In this document: piece after piece, positions 1-6,574 of the stretch | How the letters are laid out: the number at the start of each line of letters is the position of its first letter | How positions within the stretch are numbered: position 1 is the stretch's first letter | Virus record (IMG/VR): IMGVR_UViG_2703718769_000010 | Coordinates: 1 to 6,574 of that record | Length of the DNA: 6,574 bases | Strand: one strand, 5' to 3' | Source of the DNA: a virus | Lineage: Duplodnaviria > Heunggongvirae > Uroviricota > Caudoviricetes | Translations under genes and position numbers: made by a program | Notes under the pieces: generated by a model | What the model was told of the DNA's origin: nothing | Databases searched by the model: none | Seen by the model: only the letters and a program-made list of their open reading frames with translations

Positions 1-675
1 CCGGTCAGTAACCGAACCCTGATGAGTCTGCTGGCGTCAGGCGAAGACCTGGCATCACAGGGCTGGCGCTATTATCACAAACCGGCGAGCGGAGACAGTA
101 TTGATAAAAACATCGCTGAGGCTGTGGTCAGTGATGAGGGTGCCACCGGTGGTAAGGCCCTGCAACTGAACAAACAGGAAAGCCACATCTGGTTTCTGGA
201 GCATGATGCAGCCGGGCAGGGGGCAGAGTTGCTGAAGAAAGGCGGACGTGTGAGTGTGCGGTTTAAGGTGCCGGGCTCACTGGTACAGAATCGGTTTGCC
301 CTGGGTATTTACTGGCAGTTGTCGTCCCTGCCGGAGGGGGTGTCGCTGGCAGAGGAAGGCAACGACATGCTGATGTCCTTCTTCCTGCAGACGGATGCGA
401 CGAACCTGAACGCGATGTACCACAAGACGCAGAATGTGAAGCTGGATACGTTCGGGGCATTTGATAACGAATGGCACACACTGTCTTTTGAGTTTGCCGG
501 AAACAACAGCATTCAGGTGACGCCGGTACTTGATGAGAAGCGGGGCACGCCATTCACGCTGGTGAAATCTCAGGCAACAGGGGTGGCGGATAAACTTCTG
601 CTGACTGATATCACGAAGGTGGCAACGTATACGCTGCTGATTGACAGCGTGAAGGTGGAAGTGAATAACCCGTAA
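1..675 (+). CDS. 3' end of a large late-region protein, truncated by the window edge; C-terminal beta-rich lectin/jelly-roll-like domain, possibly the C-terminal domain of a prophage NanS-p-type esterase
   Basis: Frame 1 is open from nt 1 (codons ccg gtc agt aac cga acc ctg precede the first ATG at 22); stop TAA 673-675. Sits immediately upstream of the lysis cassette, the slot for large cargo ORFs in lambdoid prophages. Family guess is from remembered synteny, not a search. Confidence 0.6.
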   Translation, partial: PVSNRTLMSLLASGEDLASQGWRYYHKPASGDSIDKNIAEAVVSDEGATGGKALQLNKQESHIWFLEHDAAGQGAELLKKGGRVSVRFKVPGSLVQNRFALGIYWQLSSLPEGVSLAEEGNDMLMSFFLQTDATNLNAMYHKTQNVKLDTFGAFDNEWHTLSFEFAGNNSIQVTPVLDEKRGTPFTLVKSQATGVADKLLLTDITKVATYTLLIDSVKVEVNNP

Positions 676-814
676 GCAGGAAAAAAAAGACCGCCGGTGC
701 AGGGAAAACAAGGAGCCAGAACCGGCGGCAGAGGTCGCTACATCCTTAGCAAACAAAAAATGCAGGACTGTTTTAACTAACGGGCATTAACCATGTCAAT
801 AATGGAGATGAATA

Positions 815-994
815 ATGACATTTTTACAGCTGATTATGTTGTATTTCTGCACGGTGGTGTGCACGTTATATCTGGTCAGTGGCGGGTATAAGGTTATCCG
901 GAACTATATACGCAAAAAGACTGATGCCGCGGCGGCGGAAAAAATCAGCACCGGTCAGTCAGCCGGAACCAGACCCGAAGAGCCGCTCATTTAG
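815..994 (+). CDS. Small hydrophobic protein, 59 aa (MTFLQLIMLYFCTVVCTLYLVSGGYKVIRNYIRKKTDAAAAEKISTGQSAGTRPEEPLI); one predicted TM helix then a basic patch
   Basis: Not in the ORF track (under 60 aa). ATG 815 is preceded by GGAGA at 804-808 with 6-nt spacing; stop TAG 992-994. It overlaps, in another frame, the GTG-initiated 5' extension of track ORF 879..1319, which I consider non-coding. Confidence 0.35.
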   Translation: MTFLQLIMLYFCTVVCTLYLVSGGYKVIRNYIRKKTDAAAAEKISTGQSAGTRPEEPLI

Positions 995-1034
995 TTGCAA
1001 TCTTCTTTACAACACCTTTCAACGAGAAAATTCC

Positions 1035-1319
1035 ATGTCAGAAATAAACCCCCTGGTCACTGCTGAGGCAGTGAAAGACGCGCTGCGCTCAGAAGATGTG
1101 CGTGGAGCACTGAAACAGAAAGTCCGCCAGACATTTGAAGCGCAGATAGAAGCGGAGGTGGATGCGATTCTGGATACGCTACTGGGCGAGCAGCCAGGCG
1201 AACAGCCAGAGCCGGAACCGCAACCGGAAGATATCACCTCAGAAAACGGCGATATTCAGCCGGAATCACCGGTGGTTGATGCGACTGAAGCACAACCCGA
1301 ACCGGGCACAATGCTGTAA
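1035..1319 (+). CDS. Small acidic hypothetical protein, 94 aa, with Pro/Glu/Gln-rich low-complexity C-terminal half
   Basis: First ATG of track ORF 879..1319 (the track start is a GTG); E. coli-like codons; weak SD (GAG at 1024-1026). Function unknown. Confidence 0.5.
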
Positions 1320-1330
1320 AGGTGAGTCAG

Positions 1331-1360
1331 GGCCATCAGTAAAGTACTGCTGGCCTTTTT
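1331..1360 (+). terminator. Intrinsic terminator-like hairpin upstream of the holin gene
   Basis: GGCCATCAG (1331-1339) pairs with CTGCTGGCC (1347-1355), one mismatch, 7-nt loop, followed by TTTTT (1356-1360). Confidence 0.5.
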
Positions 1361-1395
1361 CATGTTGTGAGCTTCCGGATTGCGGGAGACGGGGT

Positions 1396-1611
1396 ATGTA
1401 CCAGATGGAAAAAATCACAACAGGTGTGTCATACACCACGTCAGCGGTGGGGACGGGCTACTGGTTCCTGCAGCTGCTGGACAGGGTTTCCCCGTCTCAG
1501 TGGGCGGCAATAGGCGTGCTGGGGAGTCTGCTGTTTGGTCTGCTGACGTACCTGACGAACCTGTATTTCAAAATCAGAGAGGACCGTCGTAAGGCGGCAC
1601 GGGGAGAGTAG
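1396..1611 (+). CDS. S: Class II holin (pinholin, phage 21 S21-like), 71 aa, dual-start motif M1-Y-Q-M4
   Basis: [71 protein letters not shown] closely matches the S21 pinholin as I remember it (shared C-terminus [20 protein letters not shown]); two TM segments; GGGAG at 1384-1388, 7 nt before ATG 1396; second in-frame ATG at 1405. The track ORF start at 1162 is an artefactual upstream extension. Confidence 0.9.
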
Positions 1612-1614
1612 GTG

Positions 1615-2256
1615 ATGAACCATGAAGAAATGAATCAGCGCTTCAGTCGTCTGGAAAATGAAATTGCTGAACTGAATAAAAAACTGTCGGCGCTGATGCC
1701 TTCTGAAGATGCAAAAAAACGCCGCGATGAGCAGTTTGCGGCGTTTTACGATGATTGCATCAAAATTGCTCGCAGGACCTTTGCGAATATTTTGCAGGAA
1801 AAGTTTTTAGCGACCGCATTGTCAGAAAAGTACTCCATTACGGTTAAAAGTGCCGGAGAGGAAGGCAATAAACGTTATTTTATTGCGTCTGCACCGGATA
1901 AAGACCAGGAATGGGAGTGTAATCGGCCATCTTTTATTGTGAGCAGCGATGACTGGAATATCACGATCCGTGAAGATGGGAAAGTAACACCGGCATCGCA
2001 CCAGCACAGTGAGGCGCTCACTGAATTTGCCATTGATTACCTGAAGAACAATAAAAAGCAGGGGCTGATGCAGCGCATTGGTCGTTGCATGGGATATCTG
2101 CAGGTAGCTGCTGAGATTGAAGCGCTGGCCAGTGGTGCTGATAAGGATGCAGTTGTGCGGGAGACCGTTCTTCGTGATTTCAATACGCCACCCTTTAAGA
2201 AAGAGCCTGATGGCTGGATCCAGCCGGGGCTGACTTATCTCAAATGGTGCATATAG
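1615..2256 (+). CDS. Hypothetical protein X, 213 aa, N-terminal coiled-coil-like segment, no TM segment or signal peptide; unknown function
   Basis: ATG 1615 lies 3 nt after the holin stop (TAG 1609-1611), with GGGGAGAG at 1601-1608 as its RBS, suggesting translational coupling to S. Stop TAG 2254-2256. No family recognised. Confidence 0.75.
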   Translation: MNHEEMNQRFSRLENEIAELNKKLSALMPSEDAKKRRDEQFAAFYDDCIKIARRTFANILQEKFLATALSEKYSITVKSAGEEGNKRYFIASAPDKDQEWECNRPSFIVSSDDWNITIREDGKVTPASHQHSEALTEFAIDYLKNNKKQGLMQRIGRCMGYLQVAAEIEALASGADKDAVVRETVLRDFNTPPFKKEPDGWIQPGLTYLKWCI

Positions 2257-2283
2257 TAAAAGAGAAAACAATTGAGGTGAAAA

Positions 2284-2511
2284 ATGAAAAAATACGATAT
2301 GACAGTTAAATCATTCCACATGGGGGATAAAAATGTTGTCGTTGTCCTTGGTATATATAATTATCAGATTCCATCAATGCTGTTGTTCAATATTGAAATA
2401 GATATTGAACGACGGGAAGATGCTACCATTCCGTTTTATGAGGCGCTGGCTTTAAAAAAAGCAGTCTCGCTAATCCATGAAATTTCTGATGATTTAGCAG
2501 TGGCTGCTTAG
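2284..2511 (+). CDS. Hypothetical small protein Y, 75 aa; unknown function
   Basis: Strong SD GAGGT (2274-2278) 5 nt before ATG 2284; 27 nt downstream of X on the same strand, so probably co-transcribed; AT-rich relative to the flanking phage genes. Confidence 0.7.
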   Translation: MKKYDMTVKSFHMGDKNVVVVLGIYNYQIPSMLLFNIEIDIERREDATIPFYEALALKKAVSLIHEISDDLAVAA

Positions 2512-2515
2512 ATTT

Positions 2516-2803
2516 TTATTTCAAAAATGGCTCAGGACTGGTATTGCCAAACATGGGTCTTACCGGTGGTTGCATGAGGGTATTGATGGCGACTTTAATC
2601 TCTGGTTTACCTGAGGTTGTGATTTTGCTCAGTTCGCTATGTAACCTGGTTTTAAGCTCATCACTGAATTTCTTGTCTCCACTTTGCTGATCCAGAATGT
2701 CAACGATGTTGTAGAACAGGAAATTGGCTGCGGTATTTATAGCTATGTTTTCGCGCTGAAGCCCCTGAATTAGTTGAAAAAGTTCATGGTTTGATATTTC
2801 CAT
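2516..2803 (-). CDS. Hypothetical protein Z, 95 aa from the ATG at 2803 (MEISNHELFQLIQGLQ...); convergent with X-Y; unknown function
   Basis: Track ORF 2516..2866 starts at a GTG with no RBS. The internal ATG (+ 2801-2803) has AAGGAG 6 nt upstream on the minus strand; the ATG at 2833 has its SD abutting the start codon. Stop TAA (+ 2516-2518) is 4 nt from the Y stop. Confidence 0.6.
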   Translation of the reverse strand: MEISNHELFQLIQGLQRENIAINTAANFLFYNIVDILDQQSGDKKFSDELKTRLHSELSKITTSGKPEIKVAINTLMQPPVRPMFGNTSPEPFLK

Positions 2804-2927
2804 TAAGTTCTCCTTATTGAGGTTATCAGCCATCCCTCTTTTGTTACATGTGCCAGTGCCCACCACTGGCAGGCTGAAGACTTAACATATCCAGGGATTC
2901 GGAACCGATAAATCCTGATAAATATCC

Positions 2928-3461
2928 ATGAACACCAAAATCAAATACGGCCTGTCGGCTGCCGTTCTGGCGCTGATTGCCGCAGGTGCGCCTGCGCCTG
3001 AAATCCTCGACCAGTTTCTGGATGAAAAAGAAGGCAACCACACCACGGCATACCGTGATGGTGCGGGTATCTGGACCATCTGTCGCGGTGCCATTCTGGT
3101 GGATAGTAAACCTGTCGTCCCGGGCATGAAGTTGTCGAAGGAGAAATGCGACCAGGTTAACGCCATTGAACGTGATAAGGCGCTGGCATGGGTGGAGAAA
3201 AACATCAAAGTGCCACTGACGGAACCCCAGAAAGCGGGGATCGCGTCATTCTGTCCGTATAACATTGGTCCCGGTAAGTGCTTCCCGTCGACGTTTTACA
3301 GACGAATTAATGCTGGTGATCGCAGGGGAGCATGTGAGGCGATTCGCTGGTGGATTAAGGACGGTGGCAGGGACTGCCGTATTCGCTCAAATAACTGTTA
3401 CGGTCAGGTATCCCGGAGAGACCAGGAGAGCGCGCTGGCGTGCTGGGGAATCGACAGATAA
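2928..3461 (+). CDS. R: SAR-type endolysin (phage lysozyme, GH24/T4-lysozyme fold), 177 aa
   Basis: Gly/Ala-rich N-terminal signal-anchor-release segment (YGLSAAVLALIAAGAPAP) followed by the canonical catalytic spacing E-x8-D-x5-T in EGNHTTAYRDGAGIWT. SAR endolysins pair with pinholins, consistent with the S gene upstream. Confidence 0.92.
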   Translation: MNTKIKYGLSAAVLALIAAGAPAPEILDQFLDEKEGNHTTAYRDGAGIWTICRGAILVDSKPVVPGMKLSKEKCDQVNAIERDKALAWVEKNIKVPLTEPQKAGIASFCPYNIGPGKCFPSTFYRRINAGDRRGACEAIRWWIKDGGRDCRIRSNNCYGQVSRRDQESALACWGIDR

Positions 3462-3550
3462 GCAGAATATTTTGCTGATAAATGGCGTTGGCCAACGCGG
3501 GCGGATAACACGAAATCCTGCGAACTGGCAAAATGTAAGTGAGTAAAAGT

Positions 3551-3593
3551 AAAAACCCCGTTTGTTGGCAGCAAGCGGGGTTTTGTGTTTTCT
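3551..3593. terminator. Bidirectional intrinsic terminator between R and Rz
   Basis: A5 (3551-3555), 9-bp stem CCCCGTTTG (3556-3564) with CAAGCGGGG (3572-3580) including one G-U pair, 7-nt loop, then TTTTGTGTTTT (3581-3591). Confidence 0.6.
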
Positions 3594-3682
3594 GACCTTG
3601 AGTAAGGCAAGGGAGAAATTATGGGTAGGGAGGTGCTTTCCCTGTGAGGAAGTATAAAAGATTCTTTCTGAGGTTGTCCATT

Positions 3683-3796
3683 ATGAAAGGCATTGAAGTG
3701 GAGACGCCAGCCAGTCTGGATTTAACAAGAGCGGCAGCTTTTGCCATTCGTATTGTGGCCATTGCTGTTCTGGTCTGGGCAATCCGTTGGTGGTGA
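3683..3796 (+). CDS. Small membrane protein candidate, 37 aa ([37 protein letters not shown])
   Basis: Not in the ORF track. ATG 3683 with GAGG at 3670-3673; stop TGA 3794-3796 sits 1 nt before the Rz ATG at 3798; single C-terminal hydrophobic helix. Confidence 0.35.
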
Positions 3797-3797
3797 T

Positions 3798-4265
3798 ATG
3801 AACCGTGTTCTGTGTGTGGTGATTATTGTCCTGCTGGTAGCCTGTGGTGTGCTTAGTCTGGGGCTGAATCATTACCGCGATAACGCCATCACCTACAAAG
3901 CGCAGCGCGATAAAAAAGTCAGTGAGCTGAAACTGGCGAATGCCACTATTACTGATATGCAGCAGCGCCAGGGTGATGTTGCTGCGCTTGATGCCAGATA
4001 CTCGAGGGAATTAGCCGATGCGAGAGCTGAAAATGAAACTCTGCGTGCTGATGTTGCCGCTGGTCGTAAGCGCCTGCGGATCAACGCCACCTGCTCCGGT
4101 ACCGTGCGTGAAGCCCCCACCACCTCCGGCGTGGATAATGCAACCGGCCCCCGACTGGCAGACACCGCTGAATGGGATTATTTCATCCTCAGAGAACGGT
4201 TGATGACAATGCAGAAGCAGCTGGAAGGGGCGCAGGAATATATCCGCACTCAGTGCCTGAAATAA
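3798..4265 (+). CDS. Rz: Rz i-spanin (inner-membrane spanin subunit), 155 aa
   Basis: [40 protein letters not shown]...[18 protein letters not shown] aligns along its whole length with lambda Rz as I recall it; N-terminal TM segment then coiled-coil periplasmic domain. The track ORF start at 3741 is an upstream extension. Confidence 0.9.
4018..4203 (+). CDS. Rz1: Rz1 o-spanin (outer-membrane lipoprotein), 61 aa, embedded in the +1 frame of Rz
   Basis: [61 protein letters not shown]: lipobox VVSAC, proline-rich mature region, close match to lambda Rz1; lies entirely inside Rz in another frame; GAGGG at 4004-4008 upstream. Confidence 0.85.
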
Positions 4266-4465
4266 GTTTTGCTGATGCGCCGTATCGTCGCCGTATTCCC
4301 GCATTAACAGAGACCGCAGCCCGACAGGGAGACTCCTCTGCGAGAGTGTGTGGGGATAATCAAAAACGATACACACCGGGGTTTACCGCGTTAACGGAGC
4401 GCGGCGTTGTCCCCTCATAGTCGCCAGTCCGGTGCGATGGTGGAAGAAACTGGAGTTTAGACAAT

Positions 4466-4499
4466 AAAAAAAACCTGCCGGGTTGTAGCAACGGCAGGT
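4466..4499 (-). terminator. Intrinsic terminator for leftward (minus-strand) transcription
   Basis: On the minus strand: stem CCTGCCG / CGGCAGG (+ 4474-4480 / 4492-4498), 11-nt loop, followed by T8 (+ strand A8 at 4466-4473). No T-run on the + strand side, so it is unidirectional. Confidence 0.6.
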
Positions 4500-4535
4500 G
4501 ATGGCACATGCAGAAGAGAATAGTATTGTTGTTAT
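4466..4535 (-). ncRNA. Candidate ~70-nt small RNA (minus strand) ending at the 4466-4499 terminator
   Basis: Putative sigma70 promoter on the minus strand: -35 TTGAAA (+ 4564-4569), 16-nt spacer, -10 GATAAT (+ 4542-4547). No credible ORF between promoter and terminator. Purely a sequence-based prediction. Confidence 0.3.
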
Positions 4536-4541
4536 TTTTTT

Positions 4542-4569
4542 ATTATCATTTTTTCAGAGTTGTTTTCAA
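4542..4569 (-). promoter_or_regulatory. Putative sigma70 promoter (TTGAAA-16-GATAAT) for the candidate small RNA
   Basis: Hexamer matches read directly from the sequence; the -35 lies inside a 16-bp motif repeated at 5201-5216. Confidence 0.3.
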
Positions 4570-5104
4570 CTCGAAATAATCGAGCCTGAATTATAATACT
4601 TACTATGCGTTATTTACTTATATTATGCTCCATGTTGCGGGACTGGGCGGTTTCCATCAGACAGTTGAGATGAATGACGAAAAGAATATTTCTTATTGTT
4701 AAGCTTTTCTGAATAATGTTTGGAGCGTATAAAATTGCCTTTGTGGCTCCTTGTGTGTGGGGGCAGGTTTTTATAGGGTGTTGTTTACTCTTATATAACA
4801 CACTGCTTTAAGTATGTTCAGCCTTCATAGGATTATTTATGCAAGTCTGGCGTTTTAATTTTATAATGTTTGCCGCCTGAACATGATTGTGAATTTCTCC
4901 TTATTTTACTGAGTGAATCTTTAAGCGAAAAATGGGTGCAACTGCTCTCGAGAGCTTTTGTCAGTGTAGCGGCCGTATTTTTTGCTGATAACGATGCAGA
5001 AGCCACCGGATGAGATTCAGATATACCTGGAAAAAGCCTGAATTGAAAAGAAACAGGTGTAATGTGCAGCACGGCTGGGGAATAAAAAATATGTGAGCAT
5101 AATC

Positions 5105-5134
5105 AAAAAAAACTGCTGTGTTGGCGCACAGCAG
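5105..5134 (-). terminator. Intrinsic terminator for leftward transcription
   Basis: On the minus strand: perfect 8-bp stem CTGCTGTG / CACAGCAG (+ 5113-5120 / 5127-5134), 6-nt loop, followed by T8 (+ strand A8 at 5105-5112). Confidence 0.65.
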
Positions 5135-5177
5135 TAAAGATTGGATAAGGGTAGAAGATTATTATTATTATTCTTTT

Positions 5178-5216
5178 GTTTTATTTTATGTGACGGATTA
5201 TTTCAATTCGGAATAA
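5178..5216 (-). promoter_or_regulatory. Second copy of the conserved motif with a weaker promoter-like arrangement (TTGAAA-17-TAAAAC), paralogous to 4542-4579
   Basis: TTTCAATTCGGAATAA (5201-5216) versus TTTCAACTCGAAATAA (4564-4579), 14/16 identical, same orientation, each about 65-70 bp from a minus-strand terminator. The -10 here lacks the conserved final T. Confidence 0.2.
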
Positions 5217-5343
5217 CTGTAGGTAATAACTTTAAGTTATCGTAAAGCCTGCAATGTTAAGGATTAGTTATATAAAGGGGCAGAGAAACGGTCCGACCCT
5301 CTGGCCTCATTCTTTAAACTTGTTATGCGATTAGCATGTTTTC

Positions 5344-5378
5344 TTGTCAGTTGTCAGTTGTCAGTTGTCAGTTGTCAG
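5344..5378. repeat. Perfect tandem heptanucleotide repeat (TTGTCAG)x5
   Basis: Five uninterrupted copies at 5344-5350, 5351-5357, 5358-5364, 5365-5371 and 5372-5378; overlaps the 3' end and stop codon of the minus-strand RHH ORF. Confidence 0.95.
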
Positions 5379-5522
5379 TCTCCGGCGACAGGCTTCAATA
5401 ACCCACGCTGAAAAGTTACCGGACCCTTTATGCTCAAGGGCGCTGTTGATCTGTTCAATCATGTGATTGGGGAAACGGATATTGCGGGTTGTTGTTCTGC
5501 GGGTTCTGTTCTTTGATGACAT
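5361..5522 (-). CDS. Small ribbon-helix-helix (CopG/Arc/omega-like) DNA-binding protein, 53 aa (MSSKNRTRRTTTRNIRFPNHMIEQINSALEHKGSGNFSAWVIEACRRRLTTDN)
   Basis: Not in the ORF track. Hand translation of the minus strand: ATG at + 5520-5522, stop TGA at + 5361-5363. Pattern of beta strand (RNIRFP), helix A (NHMIEQINSALEH), G-x-S/N loop and helix B (FSAWVIEACRRRL) is typical of RHH proteins. Weak SD (GGGG). Confidence 0.55.
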   Translation of the reverse strand: MSSKNRTRRTTTRNIRFPNHMIEQINSALEHKGSGNFSAWVIEACRRRLTTDN

Positions 5523-5710
5523 AATGTTGCCCCATATTCAGTGTTGCTGATTTGTATTATCTGAAGTTGCTTTTACGTTAATTTGATGCAGATCAATTAA
5601 TACGATACCTGCGTCATAATTGATTATTTGACGTGGTTTGATGGCGTACACGCACGTTGTGACATGTAGATGATAATTATTATTTTGTGGGTCCTTTCCG
5701 GCGATCCGAC

Positions 5711-5740
5711 AGGTTACGGGGCGGCGACCTCGCGCGTTTT
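5711..5740 (+). other. cos: Lambda-type cos site; cosN 12-nt cohesive-end sequence GGGCGGCGACCT at 5719-5730
   Basis: GCGATCCGACAGGTTACG-GGGCGGCGACCT-CGCGCGTTTTCGCTATTTATGA matches the lambda genome-end junction as I remember it (lambda begins GGGCGGCGACCTCGCGGGTTTTCGCTATTTATGAAAATTTT). The match fades about 35 nt into the cosB side. Confidence 0.85.
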
Positions 5741-5946
5741 CGCTATTTATGAGATTTTTTGAGGGGGTGGTTGTTGTTTAATTGTTTGGTATATCTAATT
5801 GATAAGTAAGGTGAAAATAAAATAAATACAACAACCTCACGATGTATTTTGATGTCATTAATGTGAAAAAATTCAATGATATCAAATGGTTTTGTAAAAA
5901 CACATGGTTGTTGTATCGCTTTTTATCGATGACTTATGGAGAGGAG

Positions 5947-6453
5947 ATGGCCTTTTTATTGAATAAAAGTGATATGGCCTCCTCCATCGGTATCTCTGTT
6001 CAGGCATTTGATAAATGGGGCGTTCCTCCTGTTGAGCGTCGGGGGAGGGAAGTTTTTTATGACGTTAAAACTGTACTGGAGATAGATCGCGAGCGGCGAC
6101 AACACAATCAGAGAACACCTGATGACGGGGGCGATCTGGAGGAAAGGCTGCTTCGGGCCAGAGCTGAACTGACAGAAGAACAGGTCGTAGCTCAAAAACT
6201 TAAAAATCAGGTAACCGAAGGTAAGCTCATCGATTCAGACTTCTGCGTTTTCGCCCTCAGCAAGCTGGCGATGGCATTGTCCAGTACGCTTGATTCTATT
6301 CCGTTATCCATGCAGCGACAGTTCCCGGATTTAACGCCACGTCATATTGACCATCTGAAAACCCTTATTGCGAAGGGCGCAAATCAGTGTGCGCGGGCAG
6401 AGGATAAATTACCGGATTTGCTGGATGAATATATCAGAGCAACAACTGAATAA
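5947..6453 (+). CDS. nu1: Terminase small subunit (lambda Nu1-like), 168 aa from the ATG at 5947
   Basis: C-terminal two-thirds aligns with lambda Nu1 (FCVFALSKLAMALSSTLDSIPLSMQRQFPDLTPRHIDHLK vs FCTFVLSRIAGEIASILDGLPLSVQRRFPELENRHVDFLK); GGAGAGGAG directly upstream of ATG 5947. Track start 5842 and the ATG at 5929 lack an RBS and would fall in cosB. Confidence 0.88.
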   Translation: MAFLLNKSDMASSIGISVQAFDKWGVPPVERRGREVFYDVKTVLEIDRERRQHNQRTPDDGGDLEERLLRARAELTEEQVVAQKLKNQVTEGKLIDSDFCVFALSKLAMALSSTLDSIPLSMQRQFPDLTPRHIDHLKTLIAKGANQCARAEDKLPDLLDEYIRATTE

Positions 6454-6574
6454 TCTGATGGTTGCCGTTTCGGTTGCGCTGCAGCCTCTGGTCAGGGGTG
6501 TACCGATGACGGCAGTTGAATGGGCTGACCAGTATTATTATCTGCCGAAAGAATCCTCATACGGGGACGGAGAA
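6425..6574 (+). CDS. A: Terminase large subunit (lambda gpA-like), N-terminal 50 codons, truncated by the window end
   Basis: MNISEQQLNNLMVAVSVALQPLVRGVPMTAVEWADQYYYLPKESSYGDGE aligns with the lambda gpA N-terminus (MNISNSQVNRLRHF...PQTAVEWADRYYYLPKESAYQ); overlaps the end of nu1 by 29 nt, as in lambda. Not in the ORF track. Confidence 0.85.
   Translation, partial: MNISEQQLNNLMVAVSVALQPLVRGVPMTAVEWADQYYYLPKESSYGDGE

Follow-up and report, generated by a model that had tools for sequence, protein, structure and literature searches.

A terminator-like hairpin and a conserved gene for a predicted membrane microprotein lie between the endolysin and spanin genes of a phage-21/Stx-type prophage

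The stretch of DNA analysed here, which we call the window, comprises 6,574 nucleotides (nt; positions 1 to 6,574) of the IMG/VR virus record IMGVR_UViG_2703718769_000010, and is the late region of an Escherichia coli lambdoid prophage of the phage-21/Shiga toxin (Stx) type. Between its endolysin gene, R, and its inner-membrane spanin gene, Rz, lie a terminator-like hairpin and a small open reading frame (ORF). Judged by its substitution pattern, this ORF is a real, selected protein-coding gene; it is annotated, yet uncharacterised, and belongs to a widespread family under selection. We consider it rather probable that the hairpin is an intrinsic terminator that Q-modified polymerase can read through, and that the gene behind it specifies a late, Rz-coupled inner-membrane microprotein with an accessory function in lysis, a function that we infer. 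Taken by itself, a role in the membrane steps of lysis has about even chances; it is favoured because the family is associated exclusively with lysis genes and because the peptide has a membrane helix. The features of the gap between R and Rz, and of the genes that flank it, are these:

2928-3461, plus strand: R, a phage-21-type endolysin with an N-terminal signal-anchor-release (SAR)-like hydrophobic segment (PF00959, E 2.5e-24)
3462-3546, plus strand: R-distal non-coding block, common to nearly all gap types (30 distinct versions aligned)
3547-3594, plus strand: intrinsic-terminator-like element consisting of an A-tract (3547-3551), a stem-loop (3552-3584) and a T-tract (3585-3594), identified by fold, scan rank and conservation
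3621-3647, plus strand: upstream mini-ORF of 8 codons (MGREVLSL), translation predicted; its TGA overlaps GTG 3644 (GTGA), and its Shine-Dalgarno (SD) duplex is -8.4 kcal/mol
3644-3796, plus strand: long form of the small ORF, 50 amino acids (aa) from GTG 3644, which adds a basic 13-residue N-terminal extension, RKYKRFFLRLSI, to the 37-aa form
3683-3796, plus strand: short form, 37 aa from ATG 3683 to TGA 3794-3796, with an acidic 16-aa N-terminus, a C-terminal transmembrane helix and the end RWW
3651-3680, minus strand: sigma-70 promoter-like match of doubtful significance (TGGACA, 18 nt, TATACT; 10/12)
3786-3800, plus strand: junction TTGGTGGTGAtATG, holding the final codons of the small ORF with its stop, the SD-like GGTGGTGAT and the Rz start (duplex -6.2 kcal/mol)
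3798-4265, plus strand: Rz, inner-membrane spanin subunit (PF03245, E 1.3e-47)
4018-4203, plus strand: Rz1, outer-membrane lipoprotein spanin subunit inside Rz in the +1 frame (lipobox LVVSAC)

The original prediction described a 336-bp spacer in place of the adjacency of R and Rz in lambda, and both points hold. R ends at 3461 and Rz starts at 3798, leaving a gap from 3462 to 3797, and in the lambda-type cassettes of the K-12 prophages DLP12 and Qin the two genes overlap, with no counterpart of the small ORF. The accompanying idea that hairpin and ORF had been inserted in this prophage did not survive a comparison of R-Rz junctions. Loci were gathered by similarity to Rz or to the small ORF, together with annotated E. 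coli and phage records. Among the 86 phage-21/Stx-type loci in which both genes could be placed the gap ranges from 293 to 1426 bp and is zero in none; the commonest lengths are ~298 bp (the H-19B type), 336 bp (the type of the window) and 642 bp. Its first 129-156 nt, which run from the stop codon of R to the end of the T-tract and include the hairpin, are common to nearly all types; the types part ways directly after the T-tract. The hairpin would mark a recombination boundary between the R module and the DNA downstream. Other gap contents include a DNA methyltransferase-like ORF of 311 aa and ant, the gene that in 933W-type phages takes the place of the sequence from just upstream of the hairpin position. 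Of 5426 complete E. coli genomes, 1778 contain part of the gap and 674 contain the full 336-bp type; a tblastn search of the phage collection, hampered by low-complexity masking of the helix, returned 2 and 14 records only. A gap that carries a hairpin and small membrane ORFs is the usual state of phage-21/Stx-type cassettes, not a one-off insertion.

The evidence that the small ORF is a gene comes from the way it varies. It occurs in 16 distinct nucleotide versions (83 loci). Between the two main ones 23 of 111 nt are different, distributed over codon positions 1, 2 and 3 as 4, 0 and 19. These differences cause four conservative amino acid changes only (I/L and I/V). The ratio of non-synonymous to synonymous polymorphism (pN/pS) is 0.08 in the frame of the ORF; the other two frames give 1.9 and 5.7. 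Conservation of the reading frame among related prophages had been set beforehand as a check on the ORF, and it proved strong; the "remnant" that had been offered as one interpretation was discarded on the same substitution pattern. Dozens of 37-aa variants with conservative substitutions are present in protein databases, some of them from E. coli and others in records that bear the names Citrobacter, Yersinia and Salmonella, and the 37-aa form itself is already in RefSeq as WP_000675931.1, a "hypothetical protein" of the Prokaryotic Genome Annotation Pipeline (PGAP). The single hydrophobic helix described earlier was recovered, with a Kyte-Doolittle maximum of 2.6 at residues 17-31, and AlphaFold predicts the C-terminal helix with a confidence (pLDDT) of ~95. 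The ORF matches phrog_4493, a family of unassigned function: the E value is 5.5e-16 with the 37-aa form, and 1.4e-24 with the 50-aa form, which covers profile positions 1-54 of 56. Neither Pfam nor NCBIfam gave a match at E <= 1. A literature search found no paper on ORFs between R and Rz, an absence that is no proof that none exists. In locus L002 (O157:H7 strain 2149) IS3-family insertion sequence (IS) elements flank the cassette and the holin is truncated; the 37-aa ORF is intact there, with an identical protein sequence. RefSeq lists no Rz coding sequence for L002 and lists its Rz1, annotated "Rz1 family lipoprotein"; homologues of R carry the annotation "lysozyme" in RefSeq loci.

The 37-aa ORF starting at ATG 3683 is present as first described, with GAGG (3671-3674) as its SD 8 nt 5' of the ATG, but it may be incomplete, because an in-frame GTG at 3644 had been overlooked. 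The SD of this GTG, TAGGGAGGTG, lies 8 nt upstream and forms a duplex of -13.1 kcal/mol, compared with -6.3 kcal/mol for that of ATG 3683. The extension has a charge of +5 over 13 residues, is taken in by the phrog_4493 profile, and has counterparts in distant homologues (YRKTFRLRIS, NYKRFFVRLN, KQYKRIFLRLSI and FYHKIFRLRLS). Compared with the paralogous family B, described below, it shows both of the first-position synonymous changes that the code permits, AGA/CGA and CTG/TTG. No variation is seen in the internal Met at which the short form starts, and the LRL codons contain its SD. The start and SD of the upstream mini-ORF are those that open the long form in family B, so that in the window allele the ancestral long-form ATG now opens the mini-ORF. 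The 33 nt 5' of ATG 3683 (3650-3682) contain a single difference between alleles that diverge at 21% of positions in the ORF itself; this conservation exceeds the coding expectation and could reflect overlapping signals or recent recombination. The 50-aa form may well be made too, and the sequence features make it plausible that the gene has a dual start, which would give a short form with an acidic tail and a long form with a basic one.

The junction with Rz is as tight as the original prediction stated. A single T (3797) separates the TGA from the ATG at 3798 in nearly all alleles, and the 1-nt spacing between stop and start is found in 44 of 49 distinct Rz-upstream contexts. With the UGA placed 1 nt before the Rz AUG and within the SD-like GGUGGUGAU, this geometry would leave ribosomes that finish the peptide in position to begin Rz, that is, by translational coupling. 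A minority allele, in L142 and in the proteins P0013, P0016, P0022 and P0026, changes the TGA to TGT and yields a 73-aa read-through that overlaps Rz in another frame.

The hairpin shows all the sequence hallmarks of an intrinsic terminator, as claimed for it, and it is conserved. Its stem has 15 pairs (6 G-C and two G.U) closed by a 3-nt loop, with AAAAA on its 5' side and the U-rich tract TTTTGTGTTTTC (3581-3594) on its 3' side. Its minimum free energy is -26.4 kcal/mol, compared with -12.1 +/- 2.7 kcal/mol in dinucleotide shuffles (z -5.3; 0 of 200 shuffles match it), and it ranks first among the terminator-like sites scanned in the window. Nucleotide diversity in the stem-loop is 0.052, against 0.108 in the neighbouring spacer and 0.18 at third codon positions of R (47 distinct sequences), so that the adjoining spacer varies about twice as much as the stem-loop, and synonymous sites of R 3.5 times as much. 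Standard pairs occupy 93% of the pair cells. The term "bidirectional" is correct in a formal sense: a T-run (TTTTT) does exist on the minus strand, but the stem there is weaker (9+3 pairs, then TTTTTAC) because the two G.U pairs turn into A.C mismatches. Variation of the types GC to GU and UA to UG fits an RNA of the plus strand only, as do the wobble pairs, so the plus strand is favoured. In divergent contexts (L140, L167 and phiSTEC1575, L174) the stem base AAAACCCCG...CGGGGTTTT is kept while the upper stems differ and still pair; L169 also has a variant upper stem that pairs, and in all three alternative paired upper stems are known. Homologous hairpins precede the same small ORF both in an unrelated cassette (L167, phiSTEC1575) and in the divergent phage L174.

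We predict that the hairpin is a plus-strand element of the intrinsic-terminator type, and an ordinary member of that class. At lambda tR' and at further terminators in late operons, Q-modified polymerase reads through. The hairpin resembles such Q-antiterminated terminators in its G+C-rich stem and U-tract, in lying within a late transcription unit, and in sitting at a module boundary that gathers accessory DNA; it differs in its place within the lysis cassette, between R and Rz, where lambda has none, termination and Q read-through at the site being predictions. It would halt RNA polymerase that Q has not modified, such as leak-through from pR' or transcription from moron promoters in the lysogen, and late transcription modified by Q would pass; it may insulate Rz, as originally suggested. 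The window scan found no plus-strand promoter-like site between hairpin and ORF (3585-3683), and we therefore propose that the small gene is expressed from the late transcript only. It would yield a single-pass inner-membrane microprotein of 37 aa, and probably the 50-aa form too, which could tune pinholin triggering, release of the SAR endolysin or spanin function.

Other gap types carry, after the hairpin, one to four small single-helix ORFs that fall into a few related families. Besides the A-type C-terminus found in the window, these include:

Family B small ORF: MEKYKRILLRLTMKNGLELKAP...ALAFAIKWVAVGIAV...LKS
Family C small ORF: MSDKLITLAKILCVIVGISF...
Family D and H-19B-type small ORFs: MAEKLSTWKFILIW...GQIRWW

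The window ORF combines a B-like N-terminus with an A-type C-terminus. It and its paralogues match PHROGs 4493, 1115, 3246, 4906 and 6632 (E 1e-24 to 1e-41), all of them without functional annotation, so that membership names the ORF and explains nothing. Pfam and NCBIfam searches with every one of the small-ORF families likewise gave no meaningful match. An exhaustive profile search returned 27 clusters only (at 50% identity), all of 20-77 aa and with no tie to any larger or annotated protein. Among the clusters read, all that reach the family C-terminus end in (R/K)WW; a few overrun it or stop short. A member of family C is present, unannotated, in 933W (L171 3074-3208; NC_000924.1 ~27435-27569), where a 44-aa single-helix ORF, MISDKLITLVKSLCVLVGISF..., lies between ant and Rz and ends 7 nt from the Rz start.

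Members of the family also occur in lysis cassettes that are only distantly related to that of the window. Phage L174 has a phage-21-type endolysin followed by the hairpin, the small ORF, TGAcATG and Rz. In L167 and phiSTEC1575-Stx2k the same ORF allele, with a homologous hairpin upstream, shares its cassette with genes for an M15 peptidase and two holin-like proteins, and leads via TGAtATG into a gene for a 60-aa lipoprotein. This lipoprotein (L167 2649-2831, L169 2649-2831) has an LVGC lipobox and three Cys in its mature part; the M15-peptidase cassette of L167 and L169 has no recognisable Rz/Rz1, and the lipoprotein may be an unusual outer-membrane lysis component. A 53-aa form in L173 overlaps the start of a signal-anchored lysozyme gene (TAATG). 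In L172, a metagenomic phage of 63% GC, five consecutive small membrane ORFs (3001-3903) extend from the capsid gene to a SAR-type lysozyme gene; two end in VRWW, and the last is 3 nt from the lysozyme gene. One ORF of L172 has a holin-like charged C-terminus, RWRRERKRPPD. Since RWW is kept where no gene lies directly downstream, it belongs to the protein itself and is more than part of a ribosome-binding site for Rz. Judged by these placements, the family is tied to lysis genes generally, beyond Rz alone.

The dual-start holin/antiholin genes of lambdoid phages, S107/S105 of lambda and S71/S68 of phage 21, are the first systems with which the small gene can be compared. Like them it encodes a small inner-membrane protein in a lysis cassette, and it has two in-frame starts, the longer product having more N-terminal positive charge (usage of both is predicted); in two distant phages a homologue directly precedes a signal-anchored lysozyme, the position of a holin. 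Unlike holins, the window peptide has one transmembrane helix with ...WAIRWW directly after it and no charged hydrophilic C-terminal tail, its extension is 13 residues long compared with 2-3 in S107/S105 and S71/S68, and the window already holds an S21 pinholin (PF04971). Of the features that define holins, the peptide has at least one transmembrane domain, and neither a charged C-terminal domain nor similarity to the Phage_holin families was found. LysA of phage P2, a membrane protein of ~140 aa with several transmembrane segments, is encoded between the endolysin gene K and the spanin genes lysB/lysC and affects lysis timing. The window gene shares with it the slot between endolysin and spanins, a membrane product and candidacy as a non-essential accessory of timing; it has no sequence relationship to LysA, and is known from sequence alone. 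The peptide also resembles Mu gp25, a "releasin" (DUF2730) that helps SAR endolysins to exit the membrane (PMC9239132), in being small and tethered to the membrane, in having an acidic soluble part, and in the proximity of its gene to that of a SAR endolysin with a basic N-terminus. Releasins of the DUF2730 type have an N-terminal transmembrane domain and a cytoplasmic domain of ~70 aa (PMC9239132). A Mu-type releasin was nevertheless rejected: there is no DUF2730 or other Pfam match, and the architecture is reversed, with a C-terminal transmembrane domain in 37-50 aa. A spanin subunit (i-, o- or u-spanin) was rejected as well, since only 16 residues lie outside the helix, there is no lipobox, and the true Rz and Rz1 begin at 3798 and 4018.

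We entertain, tentatively and as something well short of likely, that the (R/K)WW microproteins are minimal single-helix dual-start lysis regulators, either holin/antiholin-like or modulators of SAR release. The acidic N-terminal tail of the short form would permit N-out insertion in the manner of the Pf3 coat protein, the basic extension of the long form would keep the N-terminus in the cytoplasm, and the two forms could be an effector-inhibitor pair that sets the timing of pinholin/SAR-endolysin lysis. In L172 and L173 such peptides may be the sole holin-like function beside a SAR endolysin.

The same observations were weighed against explanations in which the peptide has no part in lysis. 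The gene could be a moron expressed in the lysogen, that is, a membrane protein of the prophage state made from a weak promoter past the terminator, that serves the host or the prophage, for instance in exclusion or in modifying the envelope. The R-Rz gap is indeed a hotspot of accessory DNA, as ant and the methyltransferase-like ORF demonstrate; a terminator immediately 5' of the gene is typical of moron architecture, which was noted by Tree et al. 2014 (PMC4104026); the decayed O157:H7 prophage L002, where an IS element cuts the holin, retains an intact, identical ORF; and the full gap type, found in the 674 complete E. coli genomes, is present in very few deposited phage genomes. However, the promoter that such a gene needs has no candidate on the plus strand of 3585-3683, no terminator follows the ORF, which abuts an Rz, lipoprotein or endolysin gene (at 1-3 nt or by overlap), and all contexts found are lysis cassettes. 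We regard the moron as unlikely. A pure leader ORF, whose translation alone delivers ribosomes to Rz across a long untranslated gap and whose peptide is functionless, would account for the stop 1 nt ahead of the Rz ATG and for last codons that make an SD-like sequence, and unrelated ORFs share the arrangement (R/K)WW-stop-1 nt-ATG (in the H-19B type, and in the methyltransferase type when read in a shifted frame). It does not account for purifying selection on amino acids across the entire ORF, for the retention of the transmembrane architecture and RWW in the 63%-GC phage and without a gene directly downstream, or for family members that are non-terminal in tandem arrays, and its probability is low.

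A type I toxin-antitoxin-like pair would consist of a hydrophobic toxin and an antisense RNA of ~95 nt, running from the 3680-3651 promoter to the reversed hairpin. With 37-50 aa and one transmembrane helix the ORF is of the small hydrophobic kind expected of such toxins. The 10/12 promoter match falls in the block with 1 difference in 33 nt between alleles, the A-tract 5' of the hairpin is a U-tract on the minus strand, and the predicted RNA would span the long-form SD and GTG. Promoter-like sites are nonetheless about as common in the window as chance would give (10, against an expected 9.6), the A.C mismatches weaken the minus-strand hairpin and natural variation favours the plus strand, no such RNA was found in Rfam or in the small RNA (sRNA) supplements for enterohaemorrhagic E. 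coli (EHEC), and the conserved block is also explained by a coding extension with an internal SD or by recent recombination; this pair strikes us as very unlikely. Least credible is a remnant without function, left behind by a longer gene or by a tandem array that was deleted. The ORF does resemble a fusion of a family-B-like N-terminus with a family-A C-terminus, and the ancestral long-form start now belongs to a separate mini-ORF, but a leftover would not be expected to show so low a pN/pS, to keep its length across dozens of variants, or to recur in the same fused form in E. coli, in records labelled Citrobacter and Yersinia, and in another lysis cassette. Both the leader peptide and the remnant are less likely than an accessory component of lysis.

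Several results weigh against a read-through terminator followed by an Rz-coupled lysis accessory, the reading that we favour. No match to the peptide, hairpin or promoter sequences was found in the supplements of EHEC ribosome profiling (Ribo-seq), in those on transcription start sites in EDL933 or in those of the sRNA paper of Tree et al. 2014 (PMC4104026). Because close relatives differ little, covariation in the hairpin falls short of significance in the close set, where 71-122 of 500 shuffles equal or exceed what was observed. The hairpin of L174 has no U-tract and 933W-type phages have no hairpin at all, so termination is not essential. Position speaks for this reading, since a hydrophobic ORF of 20-90 aa ends within 12 nt of the Rz start in 48 of the 49 Rz-upstream contexts, the lone exception having an inserted methyltransferase-like gene, but this figure is biased by the collection of loci through similarity to this Rz and this ORF. 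Predicted folding of the mRNA is no better than in shuffles at the Rz start (z +0.5) or at the start of the small ORF (z +0.7), and structure sequestering either start was dropped as evidence of coupling, for which we rely on geometry and spacing. The C-terminus of the peptide is also without the charged tail that holins have, and searches tied it to no characterised lysis family.

The remaining genes of the window are arranged as follows:

22-675: sialate O-acetylesterase gene, 3' end
815-994: DUF1378 gene
1035-1319: DUF826 gene
1396-1611: canonical S21-type pinholin (PF04971)
Downstream of Rz: AT-rich non-coding stretch, then a DUF3950 gene (5361-5522, minus strand)
5842-6453: Nu1-type small terminase

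The pinholin is parted from the endolysin by a 1.3-kb insert (1612-2927) with three ORFs, namely a 214-aa ORF without a Pfam match, a DUF1327 (YdfR-like) ORF and a convergent 116-aa ORF on the minus strand. The spacing between these genes is usually 4 nt (e.g. L001), and with the insert upstream the start codon of R has no SD match (duplex +0.6 kcal/mol). Two minus-strand hairpins lie at 672-770, between the end of the esterase gene and the DUF1378 gene; a U8 run comes after the second of them, GCCGCCGGU...ACCGGCGGU (z -3.56). The prophage sRNAs PasA/PasC have been reported at the same position (bioRxiv 10.64898/2026.05.13.724894), and the site is a candidate sRNA gene. An Rfam scan of the whole window at E <= 1 gave one chance snoRNA match; the R-Rz gap was empty, and AgvB and AsxR were absent. 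A perfect tandem repeat, TTGTCAG x 5.1, occupies 5344-5379 and overlaps the 3' end of the DUF3950 gene. Two further terminator-like hairpins on the minus strand (~4467-4500 and 5105-5135), each followed by T7-T8, sit between Rz and the terminase gene, in 1.5 kb of AT-rich DNA that has no long ORFs and may hold further small RNAs or morons.

The pinholin/SAR-endolysin cassette of phage 21 and the late region of Stx phages are among the best-studied lysis systems. Nearly every cassette sampled here has one to four conserved, selected genes for small membrane proteins beside Rz, of which we found no study. Lysis timing governs the release of Shiga toxin by Stx phages, and a dual-start regulator, if that view is true, would affect the timing of toxin release in them. 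If the peptides modulate lysis, then the accepted picture of three components, holin, endolysin and spanin, is incomplete for this lineage. If they have no role in lysis, they represent a clean case of a strongly selected, possibly dual-start, microprotein family.

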